DNA from: a virus
IMG/VR virus record: IMGVR_UViG_3300021594_000641
Span: 96,001-160,000 of that record
Reading direction: 5' to 3' (one strand)
Length of the DNA: 64,000 bases
Shown here: positions 24,826-57,652 of the stretch, piece after piece
How positions within the stretch are numbered: position 1 is the first letter of the stretch
How the letters are laid out: every line of letters begins with the position of its first letter
Position numbers and translations under genes: made by a program
The notes under the pieces: model-generated
The model's database searches: none
What the model was told of the DNA's origin: nothing
What the model saw: the letters and a program-made list of their open reading frames with translations, nothing else

Positions 24826-25668
24826 CTACTGTTTTCTGTAAAGTTCTTCTGGTGAAATTTTACAATAATCTTTGTAGTTTATATAGTTGTTAGGCATGTG
24901 GTGAACTGTTTGTCCTTTGATATCATCTTTAAGCAACGTTCCTTTAAACATAGGTATAGCGCCAACAGCCGCAGCTTCTCTTTTGTAACCAAAGTAATAA
25001 GGACAAATGTTTAAGTCGAAATAAGCCTGGGCAGAAAACCATTCAAATTCTTCTTGGTCTAGTATCCATAGCCCGGAGTAAAAGTTATTGTCGTTTAGAT
25101 AAAATAATTCGTTATCTAAGTTTACTTCTTTGGGAAGAGGCTGACATTTACTAAACTTAGGTGAAATGTCCGTGCAATAAGCTTTATCTCTGTCATACTC
25201 TATTCTTAAAAACCCTAAGTTGTAACCGTGTCTGCTGCACAAAGAATGGTTTGAGTACCAATACTCCAGGTTATTCTGATTAAACAGAATGTCGTCTTCG
25301 ATATACATCACAGCATCGTAGTTTATGTACGTGGAAGCCATTATAGGCCTGTGCTTCCAAGAGAGCGTATGCCCGTCTTGGCCAGTCATATCATGAAAAA
25401 CTACCAGCGCGGGATAGTGTAGTTTTAATTTTAAATTGTTCGTGTGAACGAATACCTGAGTTTTACAAGACAAAGAGTTCAAACTTTTTATTAACTCGTT
25501 GACGTATTTAAATCTTTTTTCTGAGTGCCAATAAGTTACGTGAACAGCCAAAGTAAAATTACTAAGGTTATTAGGTAACTTGTAGTTAAAACAACGGTTT
25601 AGACAAGGTTTTGGAAAAGCAAATCCGCCGCTATCAAAACCTGTTGCCAAATCAAAAGGAACAGACAT
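24826..25668 (-). CDS. GT-A fold glycosyltransferase-like protein
   Basis: VMYIEDDILF (DxD-type), LGFLRIE, YSGLWIL, HHMPNNY. Confidence 0.6.
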   Translation of the reverse strand: MSVPFDLATGFDSGGFAFPKPCLNRCFNYKLPNNLSNFTLAVHVTYWHSEKRFKYVNELIKSLNSLSCKTQVFVHTNNLKLKLHYPALVVFHDMTGQDGHTLSWKHRPIMASTYINYDAVMYIEDDILFNQNNLEYWYSNHSLCSRHGYNLGFLRIEYDRDKAYCTDISPKFSKCQPLPKEVNLDNELFYLNDNNFYSGLWILDQEEFEWFSAQAYFDLNICPYYFGYKREAAAVGAIPMFKGTLLKDDIKGQTVHHMPNNYINYKDYCKISPEELYRKQ

Positions 25669-25678
25669 ATCAAGCCTT

Positions 25679-26410
25679 TCAAAAAGATTTTACTGAGCTC
25701 ATGTAGTCGTAGCTCCATCTGGGTTTTAGAACAATTTCGCCTGAAGGAATTATTTTTCTAGTGCGTTGACTTTCGACTATGGACTCAACAGCTAAGCTTA
25801 CATCAGTTTTTTGCGGACCCCAGCCAGAACCGTGATAAGAATTAACAGTTGACCACCTGTATATGTAAAACCTATCTTCTACAGGAACTTTGACAGAGTA
25901 ATGCCCTCCTACGGCTTCTCTAAATTTTTCCATTATCTTTACATCAACGTCGCATTGATCCTTTTCTGGATAACCGCCTATAGCATCAAACAAAGTTTTA
26001 GTGAAAGCGTGGGTGGCGTGGAAAACGTTTGAAGCTGGTTTTATGTTATTTACCGCGTTCTCAAAAAATCCGTCTCCAGTATGGAATATGCCGTTTTTCA
26101 TGTTAGCTAAGGTGTAAGAGATTCTATTAGGCAAATAAATGTCGTCGTCTTCCCAGCAAAACAAAACGTCTCCTGAACACATCTTTACTGTAGCGTTGAA
26201 CTTAGCTCCTAACGGTTTTATTCTATAAGGCGTGTTGTATACCTTTATATCAGGATGATCAAAACGTATAGTTTGATTTTCGTAGTCATTTAAAATGACT
26301 AACTCTTTTGGTCCCTTGTAGTCTTGCTTTAAAAAAGACTCTACGGCTTCTTCCAAACAGTGAACTCTGCCGTAAGTAGGGCAATAACAGCTAACTAAAT
26401 TAGGGGTCAT
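25679..26410 (-). CDS. GT2 family glycosyltransferase
   Basis: VSCYCPTYGR, LVILND, LGAKFN, WEDDDIYLP; start moved to MTPNL. Confidence 0.85.
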   Translation of the reverse strand: MTPNLVSCYCPTYGRVHCLEEAVESFLKQDYKGPKELVILNDYENQTIRFDHPDIKVYNTPYRIKPLGAKFNATVKMCSGDVLFCWEDDDIYLPNRISYTLANMKNGIFHTGDGFFENAVNNIKPASNVFHATHAFTKTLFDAIGGYPEKDQCDVDVKIMEKFREAVGGHYSVKVPVEDRFYIYRWSTVNSYHGSGWGPQKTDVSLAVESIVESQRTRKIIPSGEIVLKPRWSYDYMSSVKSF

Positions 26411-26424
26411 GTGTATCTTTCTTT

Positions 26425-28929
26425 TTAAGCTTCTAGCTTGTAAATCCAGCAAAGCTCTCCAGCAGACACTGCTTTAGGTAAACTATCTACTACAGCTCTT
26501 TGTACTTCAGGCCAGTTCCAGTCGTGACCTGCCAAGACTCCTCCAGGTTTAACCTTAGGCAGCCACGCGGCTATGTCTGCTTTGACATCTTCGTATTCAT
26601 GAGAAGCGTCTATAAAAATAAAGTCCACACTGTTATCTTCAAACATATTAGCCGCTTCTACAGATTTCATTCTAATAGGCTTAACTACCTCACGACCCTT
26701 GTTTACAGGAGCCATGTTAGACAAGAACAACTCGTATAGCTTGTTTTCTTTTACGTACTGATCATTTATATGCGCAGCTTCGTTAGAGCCTAACCAAGTG
26801 TCTACAGCATACACTTGTATATTTTTATTTGAGTTTACTACCTCTACGCCAAGATAAGCCGTAGACTTTCCTTTCCAACTACCTACTTCTACTATCTTAC
26901 CTCCTTCAGGACAGTCTCTTACAAAACCTGAGTACAGTCCAGGATAGCTAAACCAGTTCTCTCCAAACTGAGGCTCTCCATAGATGTGATTCATTTTAGG
27001 CTTGGTGTGATCTTGCATAATTTTAACGTAATCCTTTTTCCATTTAGGTTTAAGTACAATCTTACCTAGAGGAATCTTACCCTCTTTAACATTACTTTCA
27101 AGTTTTTTAGCTGCCAGCTGGCTTACATTCTCAGTCATTATGTCGCAGGCAGACGTGTTGTAAAACCCAGTGCTGCCGAACCTATAGACTATAAACATGT
27201 CTTCAGGCCTTACCTCCTGGTCGTAATGCCCTCCTAGCTTCTCGGCAACTTTTCGCATGAAGAGCTGGTCTACTCCTACCCAGTCTGATTCTGTAAATCC
27301 TCCTACTGAATCAAACAGTTCTCTTGTGTAGGCGTGAGTTGGATGAGCTATAGGCCACTGATTGGCCATGTCTACCTTAGGTACTTCAAAAACTCCTTCC
27401 GAGCTTTCAGTCAAAATGTTTCTAGTGTGGAAAACTCCATTCTTCATTTTCTTTACGCAATAAGAAATTCTGTGAGGTAGAAAAATATCGTCATCGTCCC
27501 AACAAAACAAAATATCTCCCTTGCAATACTTTATTGTTTCATTGAATTTTTTACCCAAAGGAACTATATGCTCTTTTACGTTTATTATTCTTACCTCAGG
27601 ATGATCAAAATATAGCTCTTGTCCCTCGTAATCGTTTAGGATCACTAACTCTTTAGGTCCTTTGTAGTCTTGCCTTAAAAACGATTCTATAGCTTCTTCA
27701 AGACAGCTGACTCTACCGTAAGCCGCGCACCAGCAACTCACCATAGGCAAGTCTGTTGTTTTAAAAGCGTCTTCTTTAGGAAAAGTAGAATCTATTAGTT
27801 TTCCATACCTGTTGTAAGGAGTCTCGCTTAGAGAGTAAAACCCGTCGCCCCAAAGTTCTAGCATCTGGTCAAAATAAGCTTCGTACTGCCACCTGACTCT
27901 GTCTATGGAAAAATTGTCTAACGCGTACTGGTGTATTTTAAATGGATCAAGCCTGTGTACATTTTTAGCCGCTTGAACGTATTCTCCTATGGTCCTACAC
28001 CTGTATCCTGTAACGCCGTGGATAACGGTTTCAGTAAAAACTCCCCAATCTGTGGTTATGACTGGTGTTCCGCACATAGCTGCTTCCGCGTGAACACCTC
28101 CAAAAGGCTCTATGTACTGAGTTGGCACAAACAGAGCTTTTGCTTTTCGCATAAGCTCATTTCTTTCTTTGACGCCTACAACTCCTACATACTCTCCGTA
28201 GTTCATTGGAGGACCTTCAGCGCCAGCTATTAAAAGCCTGGCACCGAGATGCTTGCAAACATCTGCTGGAATTTGTATTCCTTTTCTGGGAGTGAGCCTA
28301 CCTATATAAAGGTAGTAGTCGTCCTTCTCGGCGCTGAAATCAAAATCGGCTGGGTCGTATAGACTACCTATTGCGCAATCAAAATATTTACCGTCAACGT
28401 CTGACGCGTCTCCTCTTCCTCCCTGAGCTCCGTAGAGAGTGTGCATCCAAGCGTAAGAATCAAAAATTCTAAATGTGGCAAAAGTCCCGCTGTATCCAAT
28501 ACCATATTCAACAGTCAAAAGGCTTGGAAAAAAATCAGCTATCTCTTTTTGAGAAGAGCCGCCGATTATGCAAATAAAGTCTTTTTTGGACTGCCTTTTC
28601 TTTATTCCTTCTATGACTCTTTTGTTGAACAGGCTAAAGGCGGGTTTACAGCCAGGCCAAAACACGTAAGGAGTCAGAGGAACCAACTTCTCTACGCCAA
28701 GAGTTTTCTTCTGTTCCTCCTCTGTCATTACAGGAATATGCTCTGTACATTCAGCTGTGTTGTTTTCTGGTGAGTAAAGGTAAACCGTGTGTCCTAGCGA
28801 CATCATGGCTTTGCAAAAATTTATTATTCTTGCGTTAAAAGCGCAATAAACAAAATTTTTATTTGTTTGAGCGTGAGGTAAGCCAACAACGTGAAATACT
28901 TTTTTAGGACCAAACCTTTGAGGATACAC
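26425..28929 (-). CDS. GT4 + GT2 + class I SAM methyltransferase fusion
   Basis: GT-B: LYIGRL...KG, EPFGGVHAEA..CGTPVI; GT-A: VSCWCAAYGR, WDDDDIFLP; MTase: VEVGSWKGKS, FIFIDASHEY, LAGHDW. Confidence 0.9.
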   Translation of the reverse strand: MYPQRFGPKKVFHVVGLPHAQTNKNFVYCAFNARIINFCKAMMSLGHTVYLYSPENNTAECTEHIPVMTEEEQKKTLGVEKLVPLTPYVFWPGCKPAFSLFNKRVIEGIKKRQSKKDFICIIGGSSQKEIADFFPSLLTVEYGIGYSGTFATFRIFDSYAWMHTLYGAQGGRGDASDVDGKYFDCAIGSLYDPADFDFSAEKDDYYLYIGRLTPRKGIQIPADVCKHLGARLLIAGAEGPPMNYGEYVGVVGVKERNELMRKAKALFVPTQYIEPFGGVHAEAAMCGTPVITTDWGVFTETVIHGVTGYRCRTIGEYVQAAKNVHRLDPFKIHQYALDNFSIDRVRWQYEAYFDQMLELWGDGFYSLSETPYNRYGKLIDSTFPKEDAFKTTDLPMVSCWCAAYGRVSCLEEAIESFLRQDYKGPKELVILNDYEGQELYFDHPEVRIINVKEHIVPLGKKFNETIKYCKGDILFCWDDDDIFLPHRISYCVKKMKNGVFHTRNILTESSEGVFEVPKVDMANQWPIAHPTHAYTRELFDSVGGFTESDWVGVDQLFMRKVAEKLGGHYDQEVRPEDMFIVYRFGSTGFYNTSACDIMTENVSQLAAKKLESNVKEGKIPLGKIVLKPKWKKDYVKIMQDHTKPKMNHIYGEPQFGENWFSYPGLYSGFVRDCPEGGKIVEVGSWKGKSTAYLGVEVVNSNKNIQVYAVDTWLGSNEAAHINDQYVKENKLYELFLSNMAPVNKGREVVKPIRMKSVEAANMFEDNSVDFIFIDASHEYEDVKADIAAWLPKVKPGGVLAGHDWNWPEVQRAVVDSLPKAVSAGELCWIYKLEA

Positions 28930-28932
28930 GAG

Positions 28933-29070
28933 TCACTTCCCTTCAGTCTTGTCGGTAAGAAATCCCACGATTAACGTAACGCCTACAAGCACAAAAGATA
29001 CGAGAAAGAAATACATGAAAAACTCTGAGTACAACATAAACCTCAAAAAGCTATTCAGTAAATCAATCAT
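28933..29070 (-). CDS. 45-aa membrane miniprotein
   Basis: Not in ORF track; MIDLLNSFLRFMLYSEFFMYFFLVSFVLVGVTLIVGFLTDKTEGK. Confidence 0.5.
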   Translation of the reverse strand: MIDLLNSFLRFMLYSEFFMYFFLVSFVLVGVTLIVGFLTDKTEGK

Positions 29071-29105
29071 TTGGCTTTGTTTATAGGGTAAACGGAACAA
29101 AAAAG

Positions 29106-29210
29106 CTATTCATCGCACTTTGGCTTTTCGTAGGCAAAGTATACAGCTGCAAAACCAAAAGCGCAAAATAGCATAACCAAGATTGTAGCTATGCCTTCTA
29201 TGCTAGTCAT
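29106..29210 (-). CDS. 34-aa membrane miniprotein
   Basis: Not in ORF track; overlaps HNH stop; MTSIEGIATILVMLFCAFGFAAVYFAYEKPKCDE. Confidence 0.5.
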   Translation of the reverse strand: MTSIEGIATILVMLFCAFGFAAVYFAYEKPKCDE

Positions 29211-29967
29211 GTTCTTTGTGCCTTTCTGGTCTGGGTCTTCTGTTGCCTTCACTTATGTTTTTAAACGCCTCAAGAGGCCTAGTGTTAGTGTAGTGAAAAG
29301 CTACCTTTTGCTTTTCAGGGTCTGTTAAATCAAAATGGCTCAAAGGAACTATATGGTCTATGTTCCAGCGTCTAACGCCGTCAGGCCTATGGCTTCCATG
29401 ATTGTCCCAGGTCATCCAGGACTCAAATAGATTTTCTAAATAAAGCTTGTACTCTTGTACAGAGCAACCTAAAAGAGTTGCTGTTTTTGTTGTTTTAGAG
29501 ACGCTCTGTTTTTTAAGAGCTACACGCATCAAAGCAGAAACAACTTGCTTTATTTTTAAGTGAGGGTCTGATCTTCTTCTGTCAGCCTCTTTTTTACGTG
29601 ATTCTTTATACTTTTTTGGATTATTGTTAACCCAGTCTTTCTTACTTTGAGCATTTTTTTCTTTGTTGTTTTCAATCCATTTCCGCCTATAGGCTCGCAT
29701 TTTATCTGGATTTGCTTTTTGCCAATCAGAGTTTTGTTTTAATATTTTTTGTTTGTTTTTAATATAGTTAGCTCTACCCCTTTCTTTATTTTTAAGCCTG
29801 CATTCTTCTAAATTTTCTTGATAATAGCGTTTAGCGTTTAAACGCCAAACCTCTTTAAGTTTTTCCGCGTGTTTCTCTCTGTACTTTTTACTGTATTCTT
29901 TAAATTTTTCCTTATTAGCTTCTCTGTATTTTCTATTGTACTCTCTTTGTTTTTCTTTATCAGTCAT
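29203..29967 (-). mobile_element. Free-standing HNH-type homing endonuclease with repetitive basic N-terminal helices
   Basis: MTWDNHG, WNIDHIVPLS.F, FHYTNTRPL..N; start moved to MTDKEK overlapping GT2 stop. Confidence 0.75.
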
Positions 29968-30832
29968 GTACTTTGTGCCTCTTTCCAGAATCATCATCAA
30001 AATCAATGCTTGGAAATATAAGTTTAATTCCGTTCAAAACTTCTTCGCACTGATCAGCTGGTAACTTTCTTTTAAAATAATCACAACATTGTTTAATGCT
30101 CCAGCCCATCTCGTAAGAAGCTACGAGGTAATTATGAAACTTATCATTAAGGGTTAAAGCATAGGTGATTGGTTTTGACCTGTAAAACCTATGAACCCAG
30201 CCTAGGTCTAAATGAACGTAACACTTACCTCCATTATTCCTCACTTTTTGATGTAAGTAAAGCTCTTCTGCGCTAAAACCTTTAAAGTGCTTGCTAAAGT
30301 ATGGATAGTGTTCACGCTTCATAAGCGTGTAAGCAGAGCCATGTCCTTCAATCTCTTTGATCTTTATCTTTGGCAGTTCTGGGTCTGTGTGCCATACGCC
30401 AAAGAAGTCTCCGCGCCATTCTGGTAGCAGCTCAGACGCGATCATGTGACCACGCTCGTTCAGCAACGGACCTGTCCAAAGGTCTTTGCCTATTAGGTCG
30501 CTGTCGATAGCGTCGATGATGTATTGCACAGAACATGGAGCTAGCAGAACATGACTGTCTACTAGAAGAACATAGTCGCCTTTGGCGTGTTCCCACACAG
30601 AATCTTTGGCGTGTGCTGGACCTTTGTTCTTGGAGTGGTGAACGTACCTGGCTCCAGAGTTGTTGCACACGTTTTCTAGGTCTTGCTGCTTCTCAGGCAT
30701 GTCGTCTATGACAAGAAGCTCTACGTCTGTTCTTTCTGCTTTGACGTGGTACTGGCGTATGGAAGTGAGGGTCCAGAACGCGCCTTCTGGGTCATCCCAG
30801 TTAGCCATGCCGATAGTGAGCTTGGGGGACAT
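29960..30832 (-). CDS. GT2 family glycosyltransferase
   Basis: LTIGMAN, LLVIDD, GPAHAK, VLLVDSH, FKGFSAEE. Confidence 0.8.
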   Translation of the reverse strand: MSPKLTIGMANWDDPEGAFWTLTSIRQYHVKAERTDVELLVIDDMPEKQQDLENVCNNSGARYVHHSKNKGPAHAKDSVWEHAKGDYVLLVDSHVLLAPCSVQYIIDAIDSDLIGKDLWTGPLLNERGHMIASELLPEWRGDFFGVWHTDPELPKIKIKEIEGHGSAYTLMKREHYPYFSKHFKGFSAEELYLHQKVRNNGGKCYVHLDLGWVHRFYRSKPITYALTLNDKFHNYLVASYEMGWSIKQCCDYFKRKLPADQCEEVLNGIKLIFPSIDFDDDSGKRHKVHD

Positions 30833-30842: not shown

Positions 30843-31796
30843 CTATGTCAGACCGTACCGACCTTTGAGACGATTATACAGATTGGATATGCCTGTGGAA
30901 GAGAGGGCTTTGTCGTAAACCCTTACCATATAGAATGTGGCGTTTAAAGGCTCTGCTCCGCTACCGACGTCAGCGGCCAGTCTCCAGTTCTGACCAGTTG
31001 ATATGGTAGCAGTGTTGGTAGAACTAGCATTCAATGTTCCGTTTTTATAGAGCTTTGTGTTGTTTGAAGCGTCTCTAGTAGCCGCAATTATAAACGTTGA
31101 AGCAGTTAAGTTAGTAGACCAGTTAGGCGTGTACGAGTTTAAATACAGCCCTCCAATATTGTTTAGTTGAAGAGTATTGCTAGTATAGCCGACACCGTAG
31201 TTGCCTATGATGTTGCCACCAGTGGTATTATTTAAAGTTATAGCTACAACTATAGTAAACTGCCCAGTCACTAAAGAATTATTTGCAATTTCAGCGTAGC
31301 TGCTGCTACTACCACTAAAGCTTATTCCTCCGTAGTTAGTGGTAACAAAAGTTCCGTTGTAAATAGTAGCGTTATTACCGCTTTCACTCAGATCAAACCA
31401 GGTTGAGCCTGTGCCTGGGTAGCTCTTGTAGTTCAAAGCGTCTAGGTGCAGCTTCAAGCCGTACTCGTTCTCTATGTCTGTGTTAGCCAACGTAACAGCC
31501 GCGACGTAGCTTCCATCTAGGGCTGACTGAACTCCATTGGCCGCGAGAATAATCTCAACGCTGTCGTTTGCTTCTATCGTTACGCCTGAGATGTCCAAAA
31601 CAATAGTTTGATCAGAAGCGTCTGAATCTGCTGTGTTGAGCGTTATGCCAGCTGTTATCGGCCCAGCTGTTGTAGTGGTCGTCGTAGTTGTTGTGGTTGT
31701 TGTCGTTGTGGTCGTTGTTGTAGTAGTCGTACTGGTAGAGCTTGACGAGCTAGATGTTGTGCTAGTGTCTGGAGGCGGCGATGTCATGATAGCCAT
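30843..31796 (-). CDS. Ser/Thr-tract protein with C-terminal LamG/ConA-like domain
   Basis: Long Ser/Thr run (poly-Thr) at N-terminus; LHLDA.NYKSYPGTGSTWFDLS, VRVYDKALS. Confidence 0.8.
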   Translation of the reverse strand: MAIMTSPPPDTSTTSSSSSSTSTTTTTTTTTTTTTTTTTTTTTAGPITAGITLNTADSDASDQTIVLDISGVTIEANDSVEIILAANGVQSALDGSYVAAVTLANTDIENEYGLKLHLDALNYKSYPGTGSTWFDLSESGNNATIYNGTFVTTNYGGISFSGSSSSYAEIANNSLVTGQFTIVVAITLNNTTGGNIIGNYGVGYTSNTLQLNNIGGLYLNSYTPNWSTNLTASTFIIAATRDASNNTKLYKNGTLNASSTNTATISTGQNWRLAADVGSGAEPLNATFYMVRVYDKALSSTGISNLYNRLKGRYGLT

Positions 31797-31807
31797 TTGT
31801 CGGCTCC

Positions 31808-32227
31808 TTAGAACTTTATAGATTTCTTTATTCTAGCCGTAATCTCATTAGCGTCTATCAAAGTGCCTTGGTTGGCTCCAGGGCACTTTTTTGTGATATT
31901 GTTCCAGTTTTCTTGTGAGTTTTCAATAAGTCGCATAAAAGGATAGGAGCGACATTGGTTTGGTTGAGCATCATATACTGAACAGGTTGTTCCGTTGGCT
32001 AGGAACGGGCACTCACCATTTGTCTTTCTTTGTATCTGCAAGTCTTCAAAATTATTGTTTGTATACTTGATAGCAACTTCTTGCTCAGGCATGTTCAAAT
32101 GCTTAGCCAGCACGCTAAGATCGTCACCTACCAGCCATATCGACCCTTCCCAAGACTTGCAGCAGTCACCGCACTTGGTGCATTCAAAACGCAGGCCGTC
32201 TTTGTACCAAGGCTCTTGAGTTGTCAT
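31808..32227 (-). CDS. YkgJ-family cysteine-cluster protein
   Basis: F.CTKCGDCC, CPFL, CSVY..QP.QCRSYPF, CPG. Confidence 0.85.
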   Translation of the reverse strand: MTTQEPWYKDGLRFECTKCGDCCKSWEGSIWLVGDDLSVLAKHLNMPEQEVAIKYTNNNFEDLQIQRKTNGECPFLANGTTCSVYDAQPNQCRSYPFMRLIENSQENWNNITKKCPGANQGTLIDANEITARIKKSIKF

Positions 32228-32490: not shown

Positions 32491-32505
32491 AGAAGTATCC
32501 TCCTA

Positions 32506-36402
<3,897 letters not shown>

Positions 36403-39209: not shown

Positions 39210-39221
39210 CGCACGCCCTCC

Positions 39222-39842: not shown

Positions 39843-48713
<8,871 letters not shown>

Positions 48714-49093: not shown

Positions 49094-49118
49094 GGCTTTC
49101 TCCTTATAAAAAGCTTAA

Positions 49119-49286: not shown

Positions 49287-49302
49287 AACTCATTCCTTTC
49301 TG

Positions 49303-52300
49303 TTAATGAGTGATATTCAAAAGCTCTAATCCCTTGGCAATAGACTTAGTTGTAGAGTCAGCTTTTGGGCTTGCTGCCGCTGCTCTAATCTTTTCAACTG
49401 CGTCTTTAACTGAGTTTGCCTTGTGCATACTAGAAGCAAAAGGAACATACCAATAGTTTTTAGCTTCTTCATCTACTCTAGCGTTGTACGTATCTACTAT
49501 ACTGCTTCTTATTTTTTGAACCAGATCGGCTTTAACTGTCTGAGGCATGACAGAAACTATTCTTTCAATCATCTCAGGAGTTTTATTTTCAAAAGTGTAT
49601 TTGCCGCTCTTATCTTTAAAGCCCAAACCAGCTAAGTCGTTAAACTCGTCAAAAGTTTTTGCCTTAGCCAGGACTGGAGCATTACCAAGGTTATTTATCA
49701 TTTTATTGTCTTCGGCTACTCGGCTATCAAATTTAGCCATAGCCGTTGAAGCCGTCGGGTATTTGTTATTTAGAGCAGTTAGCAAAGTTCCTCTGTTCTG
49801 AGGGTCTAACGTACCTAGCAGAGTAGCTGCTTCAGCGGCGGTTGCTCCTCCAGTCATTACTTTGTCGTATAGAGGTGAGTGCTTAACCTGGTCTATACTG
49901 TACTTTCCGTAATGATTGTCTTTACGCAGTTGGTTAAGGACCCTTTCAGTTGGATTGTCTTCTTCAACGCTACCTGTCAAAAAGCTCATGAATCCTTTTG
50001 GAGTTATCAAGTCTGAAGGAGACTGACCTGAGCTAAAGTAGTTATAGCCAGCCAGGCCCAGCGCGCCCAAGCCGCCAGCTAGACCTAGGCTAGGCAACCA
50101 GTCTCCTCCGTAGCCTGTGACCAAGCTTATAGCGCCTAAAGCGGCTAAGCCCAATCCGCCATACATAAACACTTTTTCTGTAGTGGACATGTTTGAATAA
50201 ATGTTCTTAGTCATGTCCTTGGCGTATGGAGAATCTGCTCCAACTATTTTGTCTACTTCGGAAGAAACTTTGGTAGCTACTTGAGTTTTAACTTCAGGAG
50301 TGTTTATAAGGTTAGAGACAGCTCCGACAGCCTTTTGAGAATCTGTAAAAAATTGAGGGTCTATGGGCTGGCCTGACTGGAACAGGTTAGTAGCAGCAGC
50401 TACACCAGACCAGGTAGTTATGTCTTTGACATAGCCTTCAGCTTGTTTGATCGCTTGTTTTTCTTCCGCAGTTACTGTGTCCGGAGCTGTAGACATCTTT
50501 TGTCGTATGCCCGCTAGGTTTGCGGCGGAGTCTAGTAAATGTTGTTGTTTAGGAGCTATGTCGACTTTATATGAATGGTTAAGGTAGTCAGTAACAAAAG
50601 GAAGACCGTTTTTTCTAAAATCTGCATTAGCTTCATCGTACAGTTTTGTTACTCTATCCCTTTCTGACATGTTGCTTGATTGGTCAGACCTAGACGCAAA
50701 ATCGGAATATTGCTTATTAGCGTCAGCAAACCTTGAAGCCGAGTCTTTAAAACTTTTGAATCTCTCAGGAGTGCTTCCATATTGTTGAGATATGTGAGTA
50801 GAAAGAACAGCCTGATTACTTGCTATCTCTGACTTCACTTGATTTGCTTCAAGCGTGTTAGGCTGAAGGTATGAAAGCCTTTCTGACAAATTTTGAATGT
50901 TAGTTTCTGTTTGAGCTATTTCAGGCGACACGACTAGAGCGTCAGCCACTCCTACGGAAACTAATGGAGCTATATTAGAAATTCCTGGGAATTTTGTTCT
51001 CAGACTCTCAGGAGTAACCACTTCATTGCTGGAGAAACCCCTGCTCTGCTCGTCGGCTATTTGAGCGGATGCTCTTTGCTTTTCTTCTAGAGAAGGAGGA
51101 ACAACTTCTGGTCCGGACAAGTAATTAGAAACAGGCTGGAAAAATGGAATAGTGCTGGCAGCTATAGTCGTTGCGCCTTGAATAAGGTTAGGTCCTTGGA
51201 TTGCTTTTTCAGCAATGAAGGGTTTATTAGCGACGTTCTGTATTGCTCTAGTTAATATGCTAGCAGGGTCTGGATGGGTCGTTCCTAAGGGAATAGGCCC
51301 TACAAAAGAAGCCCTGTCTGATTCTAGTATTCTTTGCATTTCATCTCGTACTGCGGCTCCCTCGTTTCTTACTATGGCACCAGGGTCTTTTAGAACCCCT
51401 GTAGAAGCATAAGGATTTTTAGCCCTAACTTGTTTAATAGCGTCAGCTATTTGCTTATACCCTTGTCTCATAAACATAGGTAAAGGGCCGTAGCCGCCAG
51501 ACAGCTCACCCGCTTGAGCTGCTTGTTCTGGAGAAGCGCCAGCAAGGCCTGCGGCTATTTGAACAGGCGCGTTAAACAGAGGAGATAATCTGTAATTGTA
51601 ATCAAATATACCTTTTGACAAATTTCCGGCTACGGCTCCAGCTGTTTGTATGGGTTTTGGGATGCCCGCTGCAATTCTGGCTAAATTTGCTGAGTTAGTA
51701 GCGCCTCCTCTTTCTAAAGCCGTTCTAGCTGAGTTAAAAGCTTCAGACCAGGAAGGAACTTGCCTAGCCGAAACTGCTTGTTGGGCTTTTGAAGCAGAAG
51801 GGCCAAACAAACGAGAAAGGAAATTTTCAGTTAAAGTATTAGCGCCTGTAGCCGCCTGTTCTGCAGCCGCTCCCAGCCTTGGAGCTAAGTACCTATACGT
51901 TGCTGGAACAGTCGCCGTAGCAGACCTTATTGCAGGCATAATCGGCCTTAAAAATGGAAAAGCCATAGCAGCAACGTTAGGGGCTAAGCGAGCATAGTTG
52001 CCTAAATACGAATTATTTTCATTAACCCCTCCAGATAAAACATCAAGAGCCTGTCTGGCTATTTCAAGTTTTTTTTGGCTATCTCCTGTTCTTAAAAATT
52101 TTTCTCTGCCTAAAATATCGTTTTCGTCTATTTGCTTTGATAACTCGTAGATAGATTTAAAATGGTTTCTTGCGGCTTCTTGCTGCTCAGGTGTTCCGAC
52201 TTTTCCAGAAGCAAGCTCAAATAAGTGCCCTGCGTTTCTATCGTATTTTAAATTATCTGCGTAAAACTTTTCTAAAGCAGGCCCTTCCAGCTCTCGACCT

Positions 52301-53337
52301 TCTGCGTCTGTTGGCAAAGCCTTTCCAGTTAAGTTGGCAGTTCTAGCCCAGTCTTTCTCTATCTGTTCGTTTGTGAATGGTTTAAAATTGTATTGGTTTA
52401 CAAGATAAGGACTGCGCATATCCTCGGGTAAAACTGGAACAGCTTTGCTAATCAAGTCTAGTCTTTCAAGATTTTGAGGAGATAGCTGTGCCGCTCTAGA
52501 ACTAAATTCAGGGAAGATAGCTTTTCTAACGTCTGGCTTGCCTAAAGCGCCATAACGCCAATCGACATTAGTTTCAGGTTGAGGTTTACCAGAAAAAATA
52601 CTTCTATCAAACCAAGAAGGGTCTATGCTCTGCATCTGCCTTTTTTGAACGCTTCCTGGAATAGCCGGCTGTAAAACTTTTAGTTTTGGACCAATCCCAA
52701 AAAATCTTCTGCCTCGGTCTAAGGCTTCTTCAGGCAACTTTATGTCCGTAGCGCCTTGAGCTTTTAGCTGTAAGTTTCTTGTTTCTTTATCCCTAGCCAA
52801 CTGCTCTTCTTGAAGCTTTTTAAAAGCAGCGTCTTCTTTTGCAATTCTAGTTTCTACATGCGGCTCAGTTAAACTTTTAGGAATAACTTCTCCAGCGCTC
52901 TTACTAATATAAGAAGCTATAGCTTCTAACTTATTTAAAGAACCAGTTTTTTTAATTCTGTTAAAGCTGCTGACTAAGTTGTCTTCAGCCTTTTTAGTTG
53001 AAATGATCTTGGCTATGGCGTTAGCGCCATAACCCTGAGGTTGTACTATAGGACCAACAGCCGGGGCTACTGGAACAGCCGGTTGACCTGTGGCTGGGCC
53101 AGCTGCTCCTCCGGTGGCGCTTACATTAGGTTTAGGCAGAGCTTTGTTGTTGAAGTTAGTTAGAGCTTCTTTGACTATGGAATCGATAAGGTAGTTATCT
53201 ACAAACTCATAAGCTCGCTTTTCTTTTTTCTTTTCAGGAAGGCTTTTTATGTCCTTAGTGTGCTTAGCCCACCTTTTAGCCATTTCTGGATGGTTAGCAA
53301 ACATCCACCTTTGTTGAGCTTTGGACTGAAAAGGCAT
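49303..53337 (-). CDS. Large Ala-rich virion-like protein (MPFxSKAQ N-terminus, C-terminal hydrophobic hairpin)
   Basis: 1344 aa; MPFQSKAQQRWMFANHPEMAKRWAKHT; YGGLGLAALGAISLV and LGLAGGLGALGLAGY. Confidence 0.75.
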   Translation of the reverse strand: MPFQSKAQQRWMFANHPEMAKRWAKHTKDIKSLPEKKKEKRAYEFVDNYLIDSIVKEALTNFNNKALPKPNVSATGGAAGPATGQPAVPVAPAVGPIVQPQGYGANAIAKIISTKKAEDNLVSSFNRIKKTGSLNKLEAIASYISKSAGEVIPKSLTEPHVETRIAKEDAAFKKLQEEQLARDKETRNLQLKAQGATDIKLPEEALDRGRRFFGIGPKLKVLQPAIPGSVQKRQMQSIDPSWFDRSIFSGKPQPETNVDWRYGALGKPDVRKAIFPEFSSRAAQLSPQNLERLDLISKAVPVLPEDMRSPYLVNQYNFKPFTNEQIEKDWARTANLTGKALPTDAEGRELEGPALEKFYADNLKYDRNAGHLFELASGKVGTPEQQEAARNHFKSIYELSKQIDENDILGREKFLRTGDSQKKLEIARQALDVLSGGVNENNSYLGNYARLAPNVAAMAFPFLRPIMPAIRSATATVPATYRYLAPRLGAAAEQAATGANTLTENFLSRLFGPSASKAQQAVSARQVPSWSEAFNSARTALERGGATNSANLARIAAGIPKPIQTAGAVAGNLSKGIFDYNYRLSPLFNAPVQIAAGLAGASPEQAAQAGELSGGYGPLPMFMRQGYKQIADAIKQVRAKNPYASTGVLKDPGAIVRNEGAAVRDEMQRILESDRASFVGPIPLGTTHPDPASILTRAIQNVANKPFIAEKAIQGPNLIQGATTIAASTIPFFQPVSNYLSGPEVVPPSLEEKQRASAQIADEQSRGFSSNEVVTPESLRTKFPGISNIAPLVSVGVADALVVSPEIAQTETNIQNLSERLSYLQPNTLEANQVKSEIASNQAVLSTHISQQYGSTPERFKSFKDSASRFADANKQYSDFASRSDQSSNMSERDRVTKLYDEANADFRKNGLPFVTDYLNHSYKVDIAPKQQHLLDSAANLAGIRQKMSTAPDTVTAEEKQAIKQAEGYVKDITTWSGVAAATNLFQSGQPIDPQFFTDSQKAVGAVSNLINTPEVKTQVATKVSSEVDKIVGADSPYAKDMTKNIYSNMSTTEKVFMYGGLGLAALGAISLVTGYGGDWLPSLGLAGGLGALGLAGYNYFSSGQSPSDLITPKGFMSFLTGSVEEDNPTERVLNQLRKDNHYGKYSIDQVKHSPLYDKVMTGGATAAEAATLLGTLDPQNRGTLLTALNNKYPTASTAMAKFDSRVAEDNKMINNLGNAPVLAKAKTFDEFNDLAGLGFKDKSGKYTFENKTPEMIERIVSVMPQTVKADLVQKIRSSIVDTYNARVDEEAKNYWYVPFASSMHKANSVKDAVEKIRAAAASPKADSTTKSIAKGLELLNITH

Positions 53338-53340
53338 GGC

Positions 53341-53685
53341 TTAATCCTGCTTAGCTGATGTTTTTTTAGCATTTTCTCTCAGCTTGTTGAAATAATCAAT
53401 AGTATCATCGATATCTGAGTTAACTGTTTGCCAGTTCCATAGATGGCCAAAAACAAAATGGCAGTTCCTTCCAGGATATCGGCAAAGGGCAATTAGATTA
53501 CTTTCGTCAAGCTCCATGTCAGGATGTTCGTGAAAAGGGCGCTTGTGGTGTGCGACAAGCTTTTTGTCTATGCCGCACACCGCGCAAGTCTTACCGTAAA
53601 GAAACTTTTTGCTGAGAGCCTGCCACTTGCCACTTCTAGGTTTCCCTAGAGTAAAGAAAGAAACTAGCTTAGCTATAAACTGCAT
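53341..53685 (-). CDS. Small HNH endonuclease
   Basis: CAVC, AHHKRPFH, SNLIALC, CHFVFGH. Confidence 0.85.
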   Translation of the reverse strand: MQFIAKLVSFFTLGKPRSGKWQALSKKFLYGKTCAVCGIDKKLVAHHKRPFHEHPDMELDESNLIALCRYPGRNCHFVFGHLWNWQTVNSDIDDTIDYFNKLRENAKKTSAKQD

Positions 53686-53705
53686 AGCTACTTATTCCAA
53701 AACAA

Positions 53706-53990
53706 CTACCTGGTCAAAGACACAACCATCTCAAGGTCGTACTCTATTTCATACTCAGCAAATATCTTCATGTTTACCTTTATGGCCTTGTCTGACCTGC
53801 TAGGTAAAACATCGACGTAGAGGAAATCAGTTTCTTCAAGGGCAGCTCTTATGGCCTTCTTTACTAAATGAAAAGCTTTCTTGTAGCTAAGCTTGTTAAA
53901 TCCTGGAAGACACATGGCAGAGTTAACCCTGTCCATGATCACGTTAAAAGCCTTCTGGACTATCAACCCTTGATCTGAATTAACTTCCAT
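53706..53990 (-). CDS. Hypothetical protein
   Basis: Start moved to gccATG 53990 (MEVNSDQ). Confidence 0.6.
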   Translation of the reverse strand: MEVNSDQGLIVQKAFNVIMDRVNSAMCLPGFNKLSYKKAFHLVKKAIRAALEETDFLYVDVLPSRSDKAIKVNMKIFAEYEIEYDLEMVVSLTR

Positions 53991-53997
53991 GGCTGCT

Positions 53998-54387
53998 TTA
54001 CCCCGTGATTGGAATAGAAGTATCCACCTGTCTAAAAACAATAGGACCTCCTTGTCTAGAAGGAGCATTAATCTCAATAGAACTGGTCTTATCTTTATTA
54101 ACAGTACTCTGATCAACAAACACTACCCTCGTATAATCAGCGAACTGCAAAGCCAAGCCCTTGTCCAAATAAGTAAAAGTAGCTGGAGGGTTTTCCAAAA
54201 GCTTACTTTTTATAAAATGGACAAAAGCCTCTACCTCCTGTTTTAGCTTCTTACTGGTCGGAGTTTCTTTTTTATCTTCCTTTGACTCCAAGTACTTTTT
54301 CAGCATCAAGTCAAAAAAATCAGGGTCTTCGTTCGTATACACTTTGAAGCCGGCGTTCTTGTATGCTTCAAGTTCTTTCTTTTCCAC
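53998..54387 (-). CDS. Hypothetical protein
   Basis: 129 aa, GTG start after AAGGTGGG. Confidence 0.65.
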   Translation of the reverse strand: MEKKELEAYKNAGFKVYTNEDPDFFDLMLKKYLESKEDKKETPTSKKLKQEVEAFVHFIKSKLLENPPATFTYLDKGLALQFADYTRVVFVDQSTVNKDKTSSIEINAPSRQGGPIVFRQVDTSIPITG

Positions 54388-54492: not shown

Positions 54493-55560
54493 TTACTTGC
54501 TAAGCTGGGCGTCTATGACTTCGGCCCATAAAGCTGAGAATTGTTTACGCCTGGCCTCAAGTCCTACAGAAGTTGAAGCTCGCATCTTGTTCAAAATGCT
54601 TTTGTTATTAAAAACAAAACTTAATGTTTTACGTATGGAACTGTCGCTGTGAAGAGCGTAGCTTACTCCCAGGTCTGTACTGCTCGACCCACATTCCAAA
54701 AGAAATCCATTAATGGAATTGCTGACTATTTCGTTCATTGGAGGAAAGTCGTAACAAACTACCGGTGTTCCCATAGTTAATGATTCTAAAACAACTGAAC
54801 CAAAGCTTTCTATCTGGCCTGGGTATACAGTTATATCGTGTTCTCCATATATAAGCGGGGTTTCAAACCAGCCAGTAGGATCATCTATAGCGATTATAGA
54901 ACTGCCGTTTTCTTTGGCTACCGTTAAGGCTTTTAATTGATTTTTTGAAAGCTTTGCAACTTTATTGCTAAACAAAAAAGTTATTTTGATTCCTGGGTTA
55001 TCGTCCAGTACAGCTATTAAAGTTTCATACAGCTTTGTGACATCTACTCTTTTGATTTGAAAACCAGGACAAGCTACTAGCACCTTTAAAGGCTCAGAGT
55101 CGGTTCTGTCTATTTGAGAAAACGCCCAGTTGCAGTCCCAAGGAATATGCACAACGTTTTTAAGCCTCCAGTAGGACTGGAAGTATTTAGCCTGTTGAGC
55201 AGAAGGAGTTACTACAGTAGTGCCTTGTTTAAGAGAAGAAACTATATCCGCGTCTACGCTATCCCACGTTGCTACACAGGTTACTGGCGTTCCTCTTTTC
55301 TTTATGGCTTTTATTTCTTGTGCGTCTGAGTAACTAAAAAATATCAGCCTGTCTACAGAAGCGCTCCAGGTTTCAAAGCTTACTTGCTTTGAACTTTTGA
55401 CAAACTCGTCCCAGTAGTCATGCAGAGCTATTCTTGTTGTAGGCTCTAGCCTATTATATATAGTGACATCATAACCTAAATTTTCCAACACTTCAGCTGT
55501 TTTTAAAGCCGCGTAAGTGAAGTCATGCCTCGCGTAATTTAGCGATATGCCTACTTTCAT
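54493..55560 (-). CDS. GT4 (GT-B) glycosyltransferase
   Basis: ESFGSVVLESLTMGTPVV..D.PPMNEIV....NG.L. Confidence 0.85.
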   Translation of the reverse strand: MKVGISLNYARHDFTYAALKTAEVLENLGYDVTIYNRLEPTTRIALHDYWDEFVKSSKQVSFETWSASVDRLIFFSYSDAQEIKAIKKRGTPVTCVATWDSVDADIVSSLKQGTTVVTPSAQQAKYFQSYWRLKNVVHIPWDCNWAFSQIDRTDSEPLKVLVACPGFQIKRVDVTKLYETLIAVLDDNPGIKITFLFSNKVAKLSKNQLKALTVAKENGSSIIAIDDPTGWFETPLIYGEHDITVYPGQIESFGSVVLESLTMGTPVVCYDFPPMNEIVSNSINGFLLECGSSSTDLGVSYALHSDSSIRKTLSFVFNNKSILNKMRASTSVGLEARRKQFSALWAEVIDAQLSK

Positions 55561-55574
55561 TTACGTGGCCTCTA

Positions 55575-56195
55575 TCAGTTGTGAACATACAGATATCCGT
55601 CTACTTTCGATATTTTACCTTTAACAGCCAAGAACAGTTTTTTTATAAAAAACCAGTCTGCTGCGAAAGAGTAGTCTGTCCAGTTTACCAGTTTTACTAC
55701 TTCAGTAGAAGCCATCCAGCAACCTACGTCTACTTTTCCTCTAGCCATTTCTGTATTAAGTGGCTGCCAAAGTTTATGACTGTGTATCATGTTGCATATG
55801 CACATTTTGGTAGAGTCTTTTTGCATTTTATATAACATGTTTTCAAAATAATTAGGAGTATACCAACAGTCTCCATTAGTAGTACATAAGTGAGTACAGC
55901 CAAGACTGGCTAAATAGGAGAACCCAGGATAACGCATGTCGTGGCCAAATTTATTTTGTCTTTCTCTGGTTTCTATAAAAATAAATCTATCGTCTTTTCC
56001 TACTAAAACATTAACTGCCGCTTTTACTTCGGGAGTTGCGGGTCCGTCGTGAGATATGGCTATTTTAAAATTTTTCCACGTTTGAGCTTTTAAGCTAGCT
56101 AGCAAAGATTGAAGAGGTTCTATTTGATTGTATGTTACGACAACCATACCTACTAAAGGATTGTCGTTAATACTTTTAAGTTTCCAAAAACGCAT
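55575..56195 (-). CDS. GT2 family glycosyltransferase
   Basis: MVVVTYNQ, IAISHDG, TTNGDCWY, AADWFF. Confidence 0.85.
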   Translation of the reverse strand: MRFWKLKSINDNPLVGMVVVTYNQIEPLQSLLASLKAQTWKNFKIAISHDGPATPEVKAAVNVLVGKDDRFIFIETRERQNKFGHDMRYPGFSYLASLGCTHLCTTNGDCWYTPNYFENMLYKMQKDSTKMCICNMIHSHKLWQPLNTEMARGKVDVGCWMASTEVVKLVNWTDYSFAADWFFIKKLFLAVKGKISKVDGYLYVHN

Positions 56196-56196
56196 T

Positions 56197-56961
56197 TTAG
56201 CCCTTACTTTTTCGGTACCATCCTTGGTATTGCTTGCCTGTTTTTACAGCTCTGCTGACACTTCTGTAGTGCCATACAAAGCTGTAAGGGCAGTATCCTA
56301 CTTTTCTACCCATGCCTAGCCATCTACCTATGAGCTCATCTTCATTCCTCATCATTTTATTTTTTGGGTTAAAAACACAAGAAGAATCAAACGCTCCGGA
56401 CCACCAAGTATCTGTAAGTGCAGCCATGCAAAATCCGTTTATAAGCGTTTGAACAAAATCCTCGTCCTTTCTTTCCATAAGCTTTTCTTGCACTTGGTCT
56501 ATGTAATCGTCTGAATCATCAAGATTATAATCAGGAATCAAGGTCGTTATCTGCTGTTTCTGACGATGCCCCGGAGCGTTTGTTGCGGGACCTACGAGGT
56601 CTGCGCGATTTTCTCTTAGAAGTTGAAATATCTTCATCGACCAGTTCTTCGGAAACTTCAAGTCGCTGTTCGCTGGTACCGCTATCGGTATTCTCAGTTC
56701 CTTTGCCTTCTGAAGTCCCCAGTTCCAGCTCCTGGTCAGGTTCTGGTCGTTCTGAGGAAACCTGTGTATTATCAACCGGTCCTGCGGTAGGCAACTCCAG
56801 ATTGACGAATCCCACTCCGGACTCGCATCGTCTACTACCATCACAATGCTGTTTGGCGTATTCGCAAGAGCTGTCTTTGCAGATAACAGTGCATAATCCA
56901 GGTGATTGTAAGTCGGGATTATCACAGCTGCTTCCAGGTTGGCTGCAAGGCTGCTCGACAT
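56197..56961 (-). CDS. GT2 family glycosyltransferase
   Basis: VIIPTYN, MVVDDAS, NLTRSWN.G, NSD, INGFCM, EDE; start moved to ATG 56961. Confidence 0.85.
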   Translation of the reverse strand: MSSSLAANLEAAVIIPTYNHLDYALLSAKTALANTPNSIVMVVDDASPEWDSSIWSCLPQDRLIIHRFPQNDQNLTRSWNWGLQKAKELRIPIAVPANSDLKFPKNWSMKIFQLLRENRADLVGPATNAPGHRQKQQITTLIPDYNLDDSDDYIDQVQEKLMERKDEDFVQTLINGFCMAALTDTWWSGAFDSSCVFNPKNKMMRNEDELIGRWLGMGRKVGYCPYSFVWHYRSVSRAVKTGKQYQGWYRKSKG

Positions 56962-57652
56962 TTTCAACCTCTGTCTTGGGTTCTTCTTTAGGTACGACAA
57001 ATTCTGGAACAGGTACGGAATCATTAGTGTCTAGCGTGCCCGTTTTAGTTATCTTAACCATTTGAACAGACAGACCAAACTCTGGATAGGCATCTACAGG
57101 TTCAAGTATTTCTACTTTCAAACCTGACCTCTTTACAAGTTCATTTATAACTAAGAAAGCGCAACCAGAGAAATGACTACTAGCGTAATAACCGTCTACT
57201 AAAATTACAGAATCTTCTCCAGTCAGTTTTATAGCGTACTCTATATCTGACTGTACCGTAGCCAAAGACTTTCCTCCGTCTATAAAAATAACATCCATTT
57301 TTGGTAATTTTTTTACAGCTTCAGGCAATGTTTTTTTACTATCGCCTTTGAATAAGTTAATTGCTTTAACTTTAGCTTTACCTTTTAAATAATCCATGAC
57401 TTCAGAATAAGATGGAGCAAAAGGTCTACGGCAGCCTTCTACTTCGCTAACTTCATGGGTCATGTCTTCAAATAAATCAAAACCATAATACTCAATATTT
57501 TTTCTTCCATTAGCGTAGGCCCTGTTGGCCATTAGTTTTCCTTGGATGCCGTGGAAACAGCCTATTTCCATAATTTTAAAAGGCTTATGTTTCTGGCCTT
57601 TTACAGAAGTTTCATCCACGGCGGTCATAAGATGTTGATAACGCAAAGTCAT
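56531..57652 (-). CDS. Class I SAM methyltransferase with long C-terminal tail overlapping the GT2 gene
   Basis: MEIGCFHG, YYGFDLFE, LFKGDSK.TL, VIFIDGG. Confidence 0.8.
   Translation of the reverse strand: MTLRYQHLMTAVDETSVKGQKHKPFKIMEIGCFHGIQGKLMANRAYANGRKNIEYYGFDLFEDMTHEVSEVEGCRRPFAPSYSEVMDYLKGKAKVKAINLFKGDSKKTLPEAVKKLPKMDVIFIDGGKSLATVQSDIEYAIKLTGEDSVILVDGYYASSHFSGCAFLVINELVKRSGLKVEILEPVDAYPEFGLSVQMVKITKTGTLDTNDSVPVPEFVVPKEEPKTEVENVEQPCSQPGSSCDNPDLQSPGLCTVICKDSSCEYAKQHCDGSRRCESGVGFVNLELPTAGPVDNTQVSSERPEPDQELELGTSEGKGTENTDSGTSEQRLEVSEELVDEDISTSKRKSRRPRRSRNKRSGASSETADNDLDS

Follow-up and report, generated by a model that had tools for sequence, protein, structure and literature searches.

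A predicted O-glycosylation system beside threonine-rich collagen fibre genes in an uncultured freshwater phage

In Clostridioides difficile, the glycosyltransferase (GT) SgtA adds N-acetylglucosamine to the threonines of the GPT collagen repeats of BclA3, and sgtA adjoins the BclA3 gene (PMC7157674). Glycosylation of BclA has been described in Bacillus anthracis (Daubenspeck 2004, as cited in PMC3368898). Viruses also build glycans on their own particles: A064R of the algal virus PBCV-1 is a GT-GT-methyltransferase that builds the capsid glycan, with A061L as a separate methyltransferase (PMC9614988), and the mycobacteriophages Che8, Corndog and Myrna use phage GTs to decorate their own virion proteins in the cytoplasm (Freeman et al. 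2023, as cited in PMC12619734). Here we describe a window of 64,000 nucleotides (nt) from the IMG/VR record IMGVR_UViG_3300021594_000641 (bases 96,001–160,000; G000:C1:96001-160000), in which tail-fibre genes rich in Gly-X-Thr collagen lie between two clusters of GT and methyltransferase genes. From comparative genomics and structural modelling, we consider that the left cluster (24826–30832) is probably a phage-encoded cytoplasmic O-glycosylation system for the Thr-rich fibres encoded directly upstream of it.

The record comes from an uncultured freshwater phage of ~190 kb; it is 189,675 bp long and was judged 91% complete. Positions below are those of the window unless a record is named, genes are called by their first coordinate, and the features located in the window lie on the minus strand. 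From the portal gene (58196–60109) down to 24087 that strand holds all open reading frames (ORFs) of at least 100 amino acids (aa), in a survey that left out ORFs nested within, or largely overlapped by, a longer minus-strand ORF. The sole strong terminator-like site on the minus strand between 23 and 61 kb is an intrinsic-terminator-like hairpin at 23441–23472 (13-bp stem with nine G-C pairs, and a T-run). The fibre genes and both enzyme clusters are thus readable as one co-directional block.

The first-pass annotation of this sequence had reported ~18 kb of fibre genes with Gly-X-Thr repeats and poly-Thr tracts, and all three features were recovered. The fibre block spans 17.9 kb (30843–48713). 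Counted in runs of at least four, 486 collagen triplets are present in three proteins, and 413 of them (85%) have Thr at the Y position, the triplet types being G-A-T and G-Q-T. These three fibres pass Pfam PF01391 with uninterrupted Gly-X-Y repeats and match PHROG tail-fibre families: a 1298-aa protein (32506–36402; E = 7e-15; 40 triplets, 31 with Thr at Y), a 1449-aa protein (40934–45283; E = 2.2e-77; 192 triplets, 152 with Thr at Y) and a 1138-aa protein (45297–48713; E = 1e-108; 254 triplets, 230 with Thr at Y). The poly-Thr tracts are 21 residues long in 30843 (aa 23–43, nt 31668–31730) and 25 residues long in 40934 (aa 366–390, nt 44114–44188), where the tract forms a linker. The 30843 product (30843–31796; Laminin_G_3, E = 3.4e-9) is a fibre-module protein with an N-terminal Ser/Thr tract followed by a LamG/ConA-like domain. 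Its gene lies 10 nt upstream of the GT2 gene 29960, and its counterpart in the sister genome G015 is 67% identical, with a T/S run of 34 residues. Three more LamG/ConA-like fibre-module proteins are encoded at 36454–37827, 37824–39209 and 39222–39842 (phrog_24074; phrog_8510, virion structural protein), with Laminin_G_3 matches at E = 3.4e-23 and 3.6e-30 within the group. The LamG/ConA-like domains and the PHROG tail-fibre matches support the assignment of this block, by homology, as a fibre module.

By analogy, SgtA with BclA3 is the nearest functional precedent for such an arrangement. In both cases a soluble GT gene lies beside the gene for a proline-poor collagen-like protein with Thr at Y, a pairing seen in the window and, for the GT4 family, at 72 of 80 loci described below; the likeness is one of gene arrangement. 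A GT2-TPR ORF was present in the sister genome G015 only. In the SgtA–BclA3 and BclA systems Thr is O-glycosylated, further sugars are added and, in Bacillus, some are methylated. The window differs from SgtA–BclA3 in that the collagen-tied GT belongs to GT4 (GT-B fold), that the protein concerned is a virion fibre and not a spore coat component, and that the repeats are G-A-T and G-Q-T rather than G-P-T.

Eight GT domains and two S-adenosylmethionine (SAM) methyltransferases had been counted in the two clusters. Seven of the GT domains gave Pfam hits above curated cut-offs, as did both methyltransferases, which are of the Methyltransf_24 type (in the 26425 fusion and in 56531); the eighth GT domain, 24826, was recognizable by fold only. 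The GT2/GT-A domain (PF00535) was found above cut-off in five ORFs, with a DXD-type motif that reads DDD in 25679 and 26425 and D-S-H in 29960. The GT4/GT-B domain (PF00534, Glycos_transf_1 C-terminal) was found in 26425 (E = 1.1e-15) and 54493 (E = 8.3e-13). No enzyme of either cluster has a hydrophobic segment typical of a membrane helix (maximum KD19 ≤1.6).

The left cluster includes an 834-aa fusion (26425–28929) of GT4 (Glycos_transf_1, aa 200–311), GT2 (Glycos_transf_2, aa 403–497) and Methyltransf_24 (aa 680–804), 60% identical over its full length to its counterpart in G015. The adjacent GT2 25679 (25679–26452; PF00535, E = 3.7e-9) is a paralogue of the middle domain of the fusion, with 50% identity to aa 396–635, and in other phages its homologues come after a 29960-type GT2. 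The gene 24826 (24826–25668) has no Pfam or NCBIfam match and is absent from G015. Its model (AlphaFold2, pLDDT 76) had only GT-A enzymes as top PDB matches (EXTL2, GT6; E = 2e-7, TM 0.41–0.47); it carries a DXD-type motif, E124-D125-D126, and EDD and VHHxPNNY motifs are invariant in seven homologues. The model indicates that 24826 is a real GT domain, at the level of fold only.

Like A064R, the fusion holds two GT domains and a SAM methyltransferase in one chain, and a separate second methyltransferase is present, as in PBCV-1, whose virus-encoded, cytoplasmic enzymes build and methylate a virion glycan. The domains themselves differ, being GT4, GT2 and Methyltransf_24 here and GT-A, a novel GT and a class I methyltransferase in A064R, and the PBCV-1 glycans are N-linked, on the capsid protein of an algal virus. 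In a phmmer search of the PDB, A064R domain 1 included, only other GTs matched the fusion. By sequence, the resemblance to A064R is one of architecture and not of descent. The mycobacteriophage systems differ in their targets, which, in the account given in PMC12619734, are C-terminal tails of capsid and tail-tube subunits and not collagen or poly-Thr fibres.

The GT2 29960 (29960–30832; PF00535, E = 4.4e-11) is the most conserved enzyme of the left cluster (86% identity in G015) and the candidate for an initiating Thr O-glycosyltransferase. It was modelled as a single 290-aa domain with a pLDDT of 95.3. In Foldseek searches the top ~47 matches were all mucin-type polypeptide N-acetylgalactosaminyltransferases (ppGalNAc-transferases; E down to 7.5e-14, TMq 0.65–0.72), and VIA-align placed GalNAc-T1 first (Z 20.7, rmsd 3.8, 267 of 290 residues), followed by Toxoplasma GalNAc-T3 (Z 19.8). 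The ppGalNAc-transferases (CAZy GT27; PDB 8v9q, 2ffu, 6s24) are thus the best whole-length structural match. A further point of likeness is the pairing of 29960-family genes with mucin-like poly-Thr tracts, and the invariant D-x-H and acidic G-x-x-E-E motif of the family may be another; D92-S-H94, E189-E190 and H214 are invariant in 20 members. The D-x-H, the E-E pair and the later His may correspond to the metal and donor motifs of GT27, with its Mn site, Gal/GalNAc-T acidic motif and third His ligand. The 29960 protein differs from GT27 enzymes in having neither a C-terminal ricin-type lectin domain nor an N-terminal membrane anchor, in its length of 290 aa and in a sequence similarity that is marginal (family profile against GalNAc-T12, E = 3e-3, and GalNAc-T4, E = 6e-3); a phmmer search of the PDB with its C-terminal half gave chance matches only. 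The model suggests that 29960 may work like a GT27 enzyme, without being classed as a member of GT27.

The 29960 family has 499 relatives in IMG/VR and 398 in bacterial genomes (31–38% identity). Among the 31 IMG/VR loci at or above 47% identity, 19 have a gene 2–420 nt upstream on the same strand whose product bears a T/S tract of 23–57 residues. The density of such tracts was 52 per Mb at 29960-family loci, as compared with 0–0.9 per Mb in 2.57 Mb of other phage DNA. The partner proteins vary in size, and most lack a Pfam domain. Phages of 31–35 kb, judged complete and otherwise unrelated, have only this cassette in common with G000. Searching the full records of 29960 relatives for a pure (ACN)x16 pattern was not informative, most tracts mixing Ser with Thr and most records being fragments. 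In bacteria (Alphaproteobacteria, Planctomycetota, Desulfobacterota and others), 13 of 21 T/S tracts of at least 15 residues fall within 2 kb upstream on the strand of the GT (11 loci, several phyla; p = 6e-12). At four of the six bacterial loci that were read, the GT is preceded by a gene for a small protein that combines a conserved N-terminal motif with a poly-Thr tail; a substrate–enzyme pair is one possible interpretation of this gene order. For 29960, then, sequence comparison indicates that the linked feature is a poly-Thr linker rather than collagen.

Two further observations concern this family. At L409, L428, L462, L471 and other bacterial loci, a 100–165-aa protein is encoded just upstream of a 620–820-aa protein with a C-terminal 29960-type GT2; the layout of the small protein is an 'LP.KW.(K/R)PV' segment, then 'PAHA', then the poly-Thr/Ser tail. 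In the unrelated 31–35 kb phages, the two GT2 genes are accompanied by homologues of two further genes of the window, a papain-family protein (21091–22002; Peptidase_C1, E = 1.2e-7; 44–54% identity) and the ORF 22430–23266 (29–35% identity), which may serve in lysis or in fibre maturation.

The GT4 domain of the fusion was associated instead with collagen. It has at least 590 IMG/VR relatives, and the neighbourhood figures given here refer to the best 80. A collagen gene was present at 72 of these 80 loci and almost always shared the strand of the GT4; at 54 loci the distance was no more than 3 kb and at 71 no more than 6 kb. Most of the eight loci without one lack an upstream flank. Thr occupied at least 50% of Y positions in 64 of the 72 GT4-linked collagen loci (89%), as compared with 20 of 113 (18%) in a general set of phage collagen loci collected by a composition-blind pattern (Fisher p = 8.5e-23). 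Sixty of the 80 loci belong to one group of phages with at least four other ORFs in common, and roughly seven distinct lineages show the pairing. The pairing also occurs in the cultured Synechococcus phage ACG-2014f, an unrelated T4-like cyanophage. Its GT4 homologue (gp019; 36–38% identity) follows at a distance of ~1 kb the collagen protein gp016, which has 129 triplets and Thr at Y in 66 of these, in a setting between baseplate and tail-fibre genes. The cultured Synechococcus phage S-CAM7 also carries the GT4–collagen pair. In ACG-2014f, a 2-oxoglutarate-Fe(II) oxygenase gene (L472:10067-10660) directly follows the collagen-linked GT4, an arrangement that recalls the hydroxylase/glycosyltransferase enzymes acting on collagen.

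The density of GT2 genes was also raised near G-X-T collagen, at 31 per Mb as compared with 6.3 elsewhere and 3.6–7.6 beside low-Thr collagen. This backs the case of the window only weakly, because a single lineage, carrying an unrelated GT2 of ~355 aa, accounts for ~8 of the 11 positives. That ~355-aa family (33–52% mutual identity, and unlike the GTs of the window) was found 0–4.5 kb from G-X-T collagen genes in L067, L079, L111, L136 and L146, which are IMG/VR contigs of 20–42 kb; in L136 it lies between two such genes. Its closest cultured homologue is in the Actinomycetia phage DSL-LC01 (50% identity).

A portal search recovered 14 related IMG/VR contigs, and a search with the fusion protein recovered the 192-kb sister G015. 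In G015 (82% portal identity) the architecture is repeated, in the order portal, methyltransferase/GT2/GT2/GT4, fibres, CxxCxxCC protein, poly-Thr LamG protein, GT2 and fusion. Its fibres hold 592 collagen triplets (533 with Thr at Y) as well as poly-Thr runs; compared with the window, G015 lacks the 24826 gene and an HNH-like ORF but has three inserted ORFs, among them one for a GT2-TPR protein. In G001, also at 82% portal identity, the record breaks off within the collagen genes; it shows the portal-side cluster as well as poly-Thr tracts and 582 triplets, of which 544 have Thr at Y. Relatives with ~65% portal identity (subclade B: G009, G004, G005 and others) keep the portal-side cluster beside the portal. 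In subclade B there was no homologue of 29960, of 25679 or of the fusion GT domains, no G-X-T collagen and no T/S tract of 20 residues or more; shorter Ser/Thr runs are present in its proteins. Because subclade B keeps only the portal-side cluster, the left cluster is the one that accompanies the Thr-rich fibres, and the portal-side cluster is an independent, older feature of the clade. The proposal of the first-pass annotation that a single system brackets the fibres is not upheld by these genomes. Its broader claim, that the phage glycosylates its own fibres, is retained in part: two of the eight GT domains belong to families tied to Thr-rich proteins, and the support comes from comparative genomics only.

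The portal-side cluster (54493–57652) is separated from the fibres by ~5.7 kb of non-fibre genes (48785–54387). Its GT4 (54493–55560; GT-B) is conserved beside the portal in G001, G015, G009, G004 and G005 (28–43% identity). It is followed by a 206-aa GT2 (55575–56195; PF00535, E = 1.3e-11; 45–67% identity in relatives), a 275-aa GT2 (56197–57024; PF00535, E = 4.5e-9; 46–61% identity in relatives) and a Methyltransf_24 methyltransferase (56531–57652; PF13578, E = 1.2e-9). The 55575 family is nearly restricted to this clade, with 19 IMG/VR loci; outside the clade, a search for its relatives recovered only eight distant loci of uninformative context. The portal of G000 shares 27–29% identity with its counterparts in Salmonella phage Arash and Vibrio phages D69, D148 and D181; no GT was found near the portal of Arash, the nearest cultured relative. 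Matches to mycobacteriophages were limited to the methyltransferase domain, at 28% identity (to genes annotated methyltransferase, O-methyltransferase or DNA methyltransferase).

In sister genomes the portal-side cluster has additional genes. G015 has there an MptE/Maf-like protein, at 45.7 bits, together with a CTP_transf_3 cytidylyltransferase (E = 1e-45; L064:11091-11867, 15131-15859), and in G009 a Maf-like domain is fused to a methyltransferase (L026:11850-13763). The marker domains of flagellin-type O-glycosylation with Maf and CMP-nonulosonate (PF01973 and PF02348) are thus present in G015; neither was found in G000. By homology, these genes suggest that nonulosonic-acid or Kdo-type sugars are used in some members of the clade, and they hint at glycosylation of protein Ser/Thr in the sister genomes. 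The portal-side cluster, seen across these relatives, is an older part of this clade and probably also glycosylates some virion component.

The left-cluster enzymes could act as follows. The GT2 29960, with its D-x-H metal site, would attach the first sugar to threonines of the 30843 and 40934 poly-Thr linkers, and possibly to those of further proteins, while the GT4 domain of the fusion would act on, or next to, the Gly-X-Thr collagen segments. The glycan could then be extended by the two paralogous GT2 domains and the 24826 GT-A protein, and the fused Methyltransf_24 domain would O-methylate a sugar. A methyl-capped coat of this kind, as the first-pass annotation proposed, might stabilise the triple helix, shield the fibres from proteases or antibodies, or affect adsorption. 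No sugar-nucleotide gene of the Epimerase or NTP_transferase families was found in the genome, and the donors would therefore have to come from host nucleotide-sugar pools.

Several observations weigh against glycosylation of the fibres by the left cluster. The support consists of homology, fold and gene neighbourhood, and the GT4 and GT2 co-occurrence counts are not phylogenetically independent, much of the signal coming from related phages. No poly-Thr gene was found within 10 kb in 11 of the 31 close 29960 relatives, and the portal-side cluster persists in relatives without Thr-collagen. The nearest solved relatives of the GT4 domain in the PDB are tetrahydrobiopterin glucosyltransferases, whose acceptor is a small molecule. 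For 29960, other GT2 enzymes follow the ppGalNAc-transferases by only 2–4 Z units (K4CP 18.4, TarS 17.3, TarP 16.5), and the best PDB match of the family sequence profile is prophage TarP (E = 9.5e-7). Collagen encoded by a prophage is stable without glycosylation, so that stabilisation does not require it (PMC3368898). When aquatic phages carry GTs in variable regions next to their fibre genes, the usual interpretation is that these modify host lipopolysaccharide (LPS) (PMC7029224, PMC12801897).

A wider form of this last interpretation we consider unlikely for this locus: during infection the phage GTs and methyltransferases would alter the host envelope by remodelling its LPS O-antigen, capsule or teichoic acid, blocking superinfection or easing release, and they would lie near the fibres only as part of a shared, exchangeable host-range region. 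It would fit the low G+C of both clusters (0.37–0.40), gene content that varies between sister genomes, and the papain-like peptidase (21091-type) and 22430-type gene that accompany the GT cassette and may belong to a lysis or host-interaction module. NCBIfam matches were to polysaccharide GTs, WcaA and PglI among them, and fell far short of the cut-off. The structural scores of RmlT, TarS and TarP (Z 16.5–17.3) point the same way. TarP, a GlcNAc-transferase, and TarS, both acting on wall teichoic acid in Staphylococcus (PDB 6h1j, 5tze), share the GT2 GT-A fold with 29960, TarP being phage-borne. However, the TarP match covers the N-terminal nucleotide-binding part (aa 3–121), the Z scores are 3–4 lower with fewer residues aligned, and the enzymes that best match the 29960 fold act on peptides and cover the whole protein. 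To our knowledge, TarP and TarS have no link to poly-Thr proteins. Remodelling of the host leaves unexplained both the tie of the GT4 to Thr-rich collagen (89% as compared with 18%) and that of the GT2 to poly-Thr in phages and bacteria. It also sits poorly with the lack of sugar-nucleotide genes of the two families named above and with GTs that have no hydrophobic segment, although priming phosphoglycosyltransferases, flippases and polymerases were not specifically searched for.

A division of labour, in which the left cluster acts on the Thr-rich fibres, the portal-side cluster acts on an unrelated target (the head or neck, an internal protein or a host molecule) and the bracketing is coincidental, has a substantial chance of being correct, somewhat short of even. 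It agrees with the position of the portal-side cluster beside the portal in all members of the clade, even those without G-X-T collagen or poly-Thr, with the near restriction of the 55575-type GT2 to the clade and with the ~5.7 kb that separates this cluster from the fibres. The sole collagen of G009, moreover, is of G-Y-Q type and lies beside baseplate genes, ~105 kb off by the coordinates of its linear record, which may represent a permuted circle. Against this, collagen, GT4 and portal genes stand in a row in the distant relative G013 (46% portal identity), and subclade B proteins do carry shorter Ser/Thr runs. The Maf-like and CMP-sugar genes in the portal-side cluster of the sisters are classic tools of Ser/Thr protein glycosylation, which makes a virion protein the likely target. 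Glycosylation of phage DNA, by addition of sugars to hydroxymethyl-pyrimidines as protection against restriction, is very improbable here. Phage GTs are classically DNA-modifying, as in the T-even phages (10.1101/2023.12.21.572611), and the genome holds many GT domains. Yet a search found no PF00303 thymidylate-synthase-type hydroxymethylase in this 91%-complete genome, the search controls being positive, and the GT2 and GT4 types present are tied to structural genes; nor was there a match to the Tet/JBP dioxygenases (PF12851), although the control of that search was uninformative. O-glycosylation of the fibres by the left cluster is thus the explanation that we favour.

More widely, we raise as a tentative possibility that phages and some bacteria share a widespread, undescribed O-glycosylation of mucin and collagen type, with dedicated GT4 (Gly-X-Thr) and compact GT2 (poly-Thr) families. 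No paper was found in the literature searched on a phage GT4 family tied to Thr-collagen, or on a ppGalNAc-transferase-like phage GT tied to poly-Thr proteins. If this is true, many aquatic phages would carry virion fibres coated with glycans, and the mucin glycosyltransferases of eukaryotes (GT27) could have a prokaryotic or viral relative in the 29960 family. Annotation of aquatic phages routinely treats GT genes near the tail fibres as acting on host LPS or on DNA; were the fibres decorated instead, receptor binding, host range and virion stability, like the response of grazers or antibodies to the particle, would hinge on a glycan layer invisible to annotation. The cultured Synechococcus phages ACG-2014f and S-CAM7, and the small bacterial poly-Thr proteins beside a homologous GT2, offer test systems, and the soluble enzymes might be used to glycosylate Thr-rich peptides or designer collagens in bacteria.

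The remaining genes of the region are less informative. A 175-aa ORF at the end of the left cluster (24087–24614; 39% identity to an ORF at the same position in G015) is possibly a HAD-type phosphatase, its sole NCBIfam match being a weak one to acid phosphatase (E = 0.0022). Apart from that match, Pfam and NCBIfam returned nothing for ORFs 24826, 24087, 23510, 22430, 29203, 48785 and 49303. Between two GT genes of the left cluster sits a 267-aa basic (Lys/Arg-rich) ORF (29203–30006) with an H-N-H-like C terminus seen in the translation and a 47-nt overlap with the end of 29960. In G015 the two GT genes adjoin with no such ORF between them, and because of this absence the ORF resembles a homing-type endonuclease gene that was inserted recently. 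Another small HNH ORF (53341–53685; PF01844) lies beside the portal-side cluster.

Within the fibre block, 31808–32227 encodes a CxxCxxCC (YkgJ/FliB-type) metal-binding protein (PF03692, E = 3.5e-12; 62% identity in G015), with a weak NCBIfam match to flagellin lysine-N-methylase (E = 0.0011). A 317-aa fibre-associated protein (39832–40785) matches phrog_28536 and phrog_17490, which have no assigned function; its G015 counterpart is 51% identical and contains collagen triplets. Asp-box-like repeats were read by eye in the translation of 40934. The 1344-aa protein encoded at 49303–53337 has no Pfam or PHROG match, and its conservation in G001 and G015 is confined to the ~40 N-terminal residues. 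Outside the window, at record positions 36534–37625 of G000 near baseplate genes, a 363-aa protein has a C-terminal poly-Thr/Glu-Pro tract. A G009 protein with a poly-Ser run (7350–8375) is homologous to the record gene at 38377–39393 of G000 and not to the neighbouring 36534–37625. The G-Y-Q collagen fibre of G009 (L021:1-7254) is longer than 2418 aa, the record end cutting the gene, and holds 483 triplets of the unusual G-Y-Q and G-N-Q types, interleaved with many copies of a Cys-containing module of ~70 residues.

Finally, the methyltransferase ORF of the portal-side cluster extends as a 163-aa tail over the 56197 GT2 gene, so that the first half of the GT2 gene is also read in a second frame, with a dual-coding overlap of 494 nt (56531–57024). 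In the window and in 10 of 10 relatives that hold both genes, 123–139 codons of the tail are open in the +1 frame over the conserved part of the GT2 gene. No stop occurs in the overlap frame in the window or in these relatives (L007, L009-L016, L064), though GT2 identity falls to 46%, and the overprinted tail retains Cys-rich, 'EERQEPD' and poly-Arg motifs. Judged from this conservation, 56531–57024 would be either a true dual-coding (overprinted) region or a programmed frameshift site that fuses the methyltransferase to the GT2.

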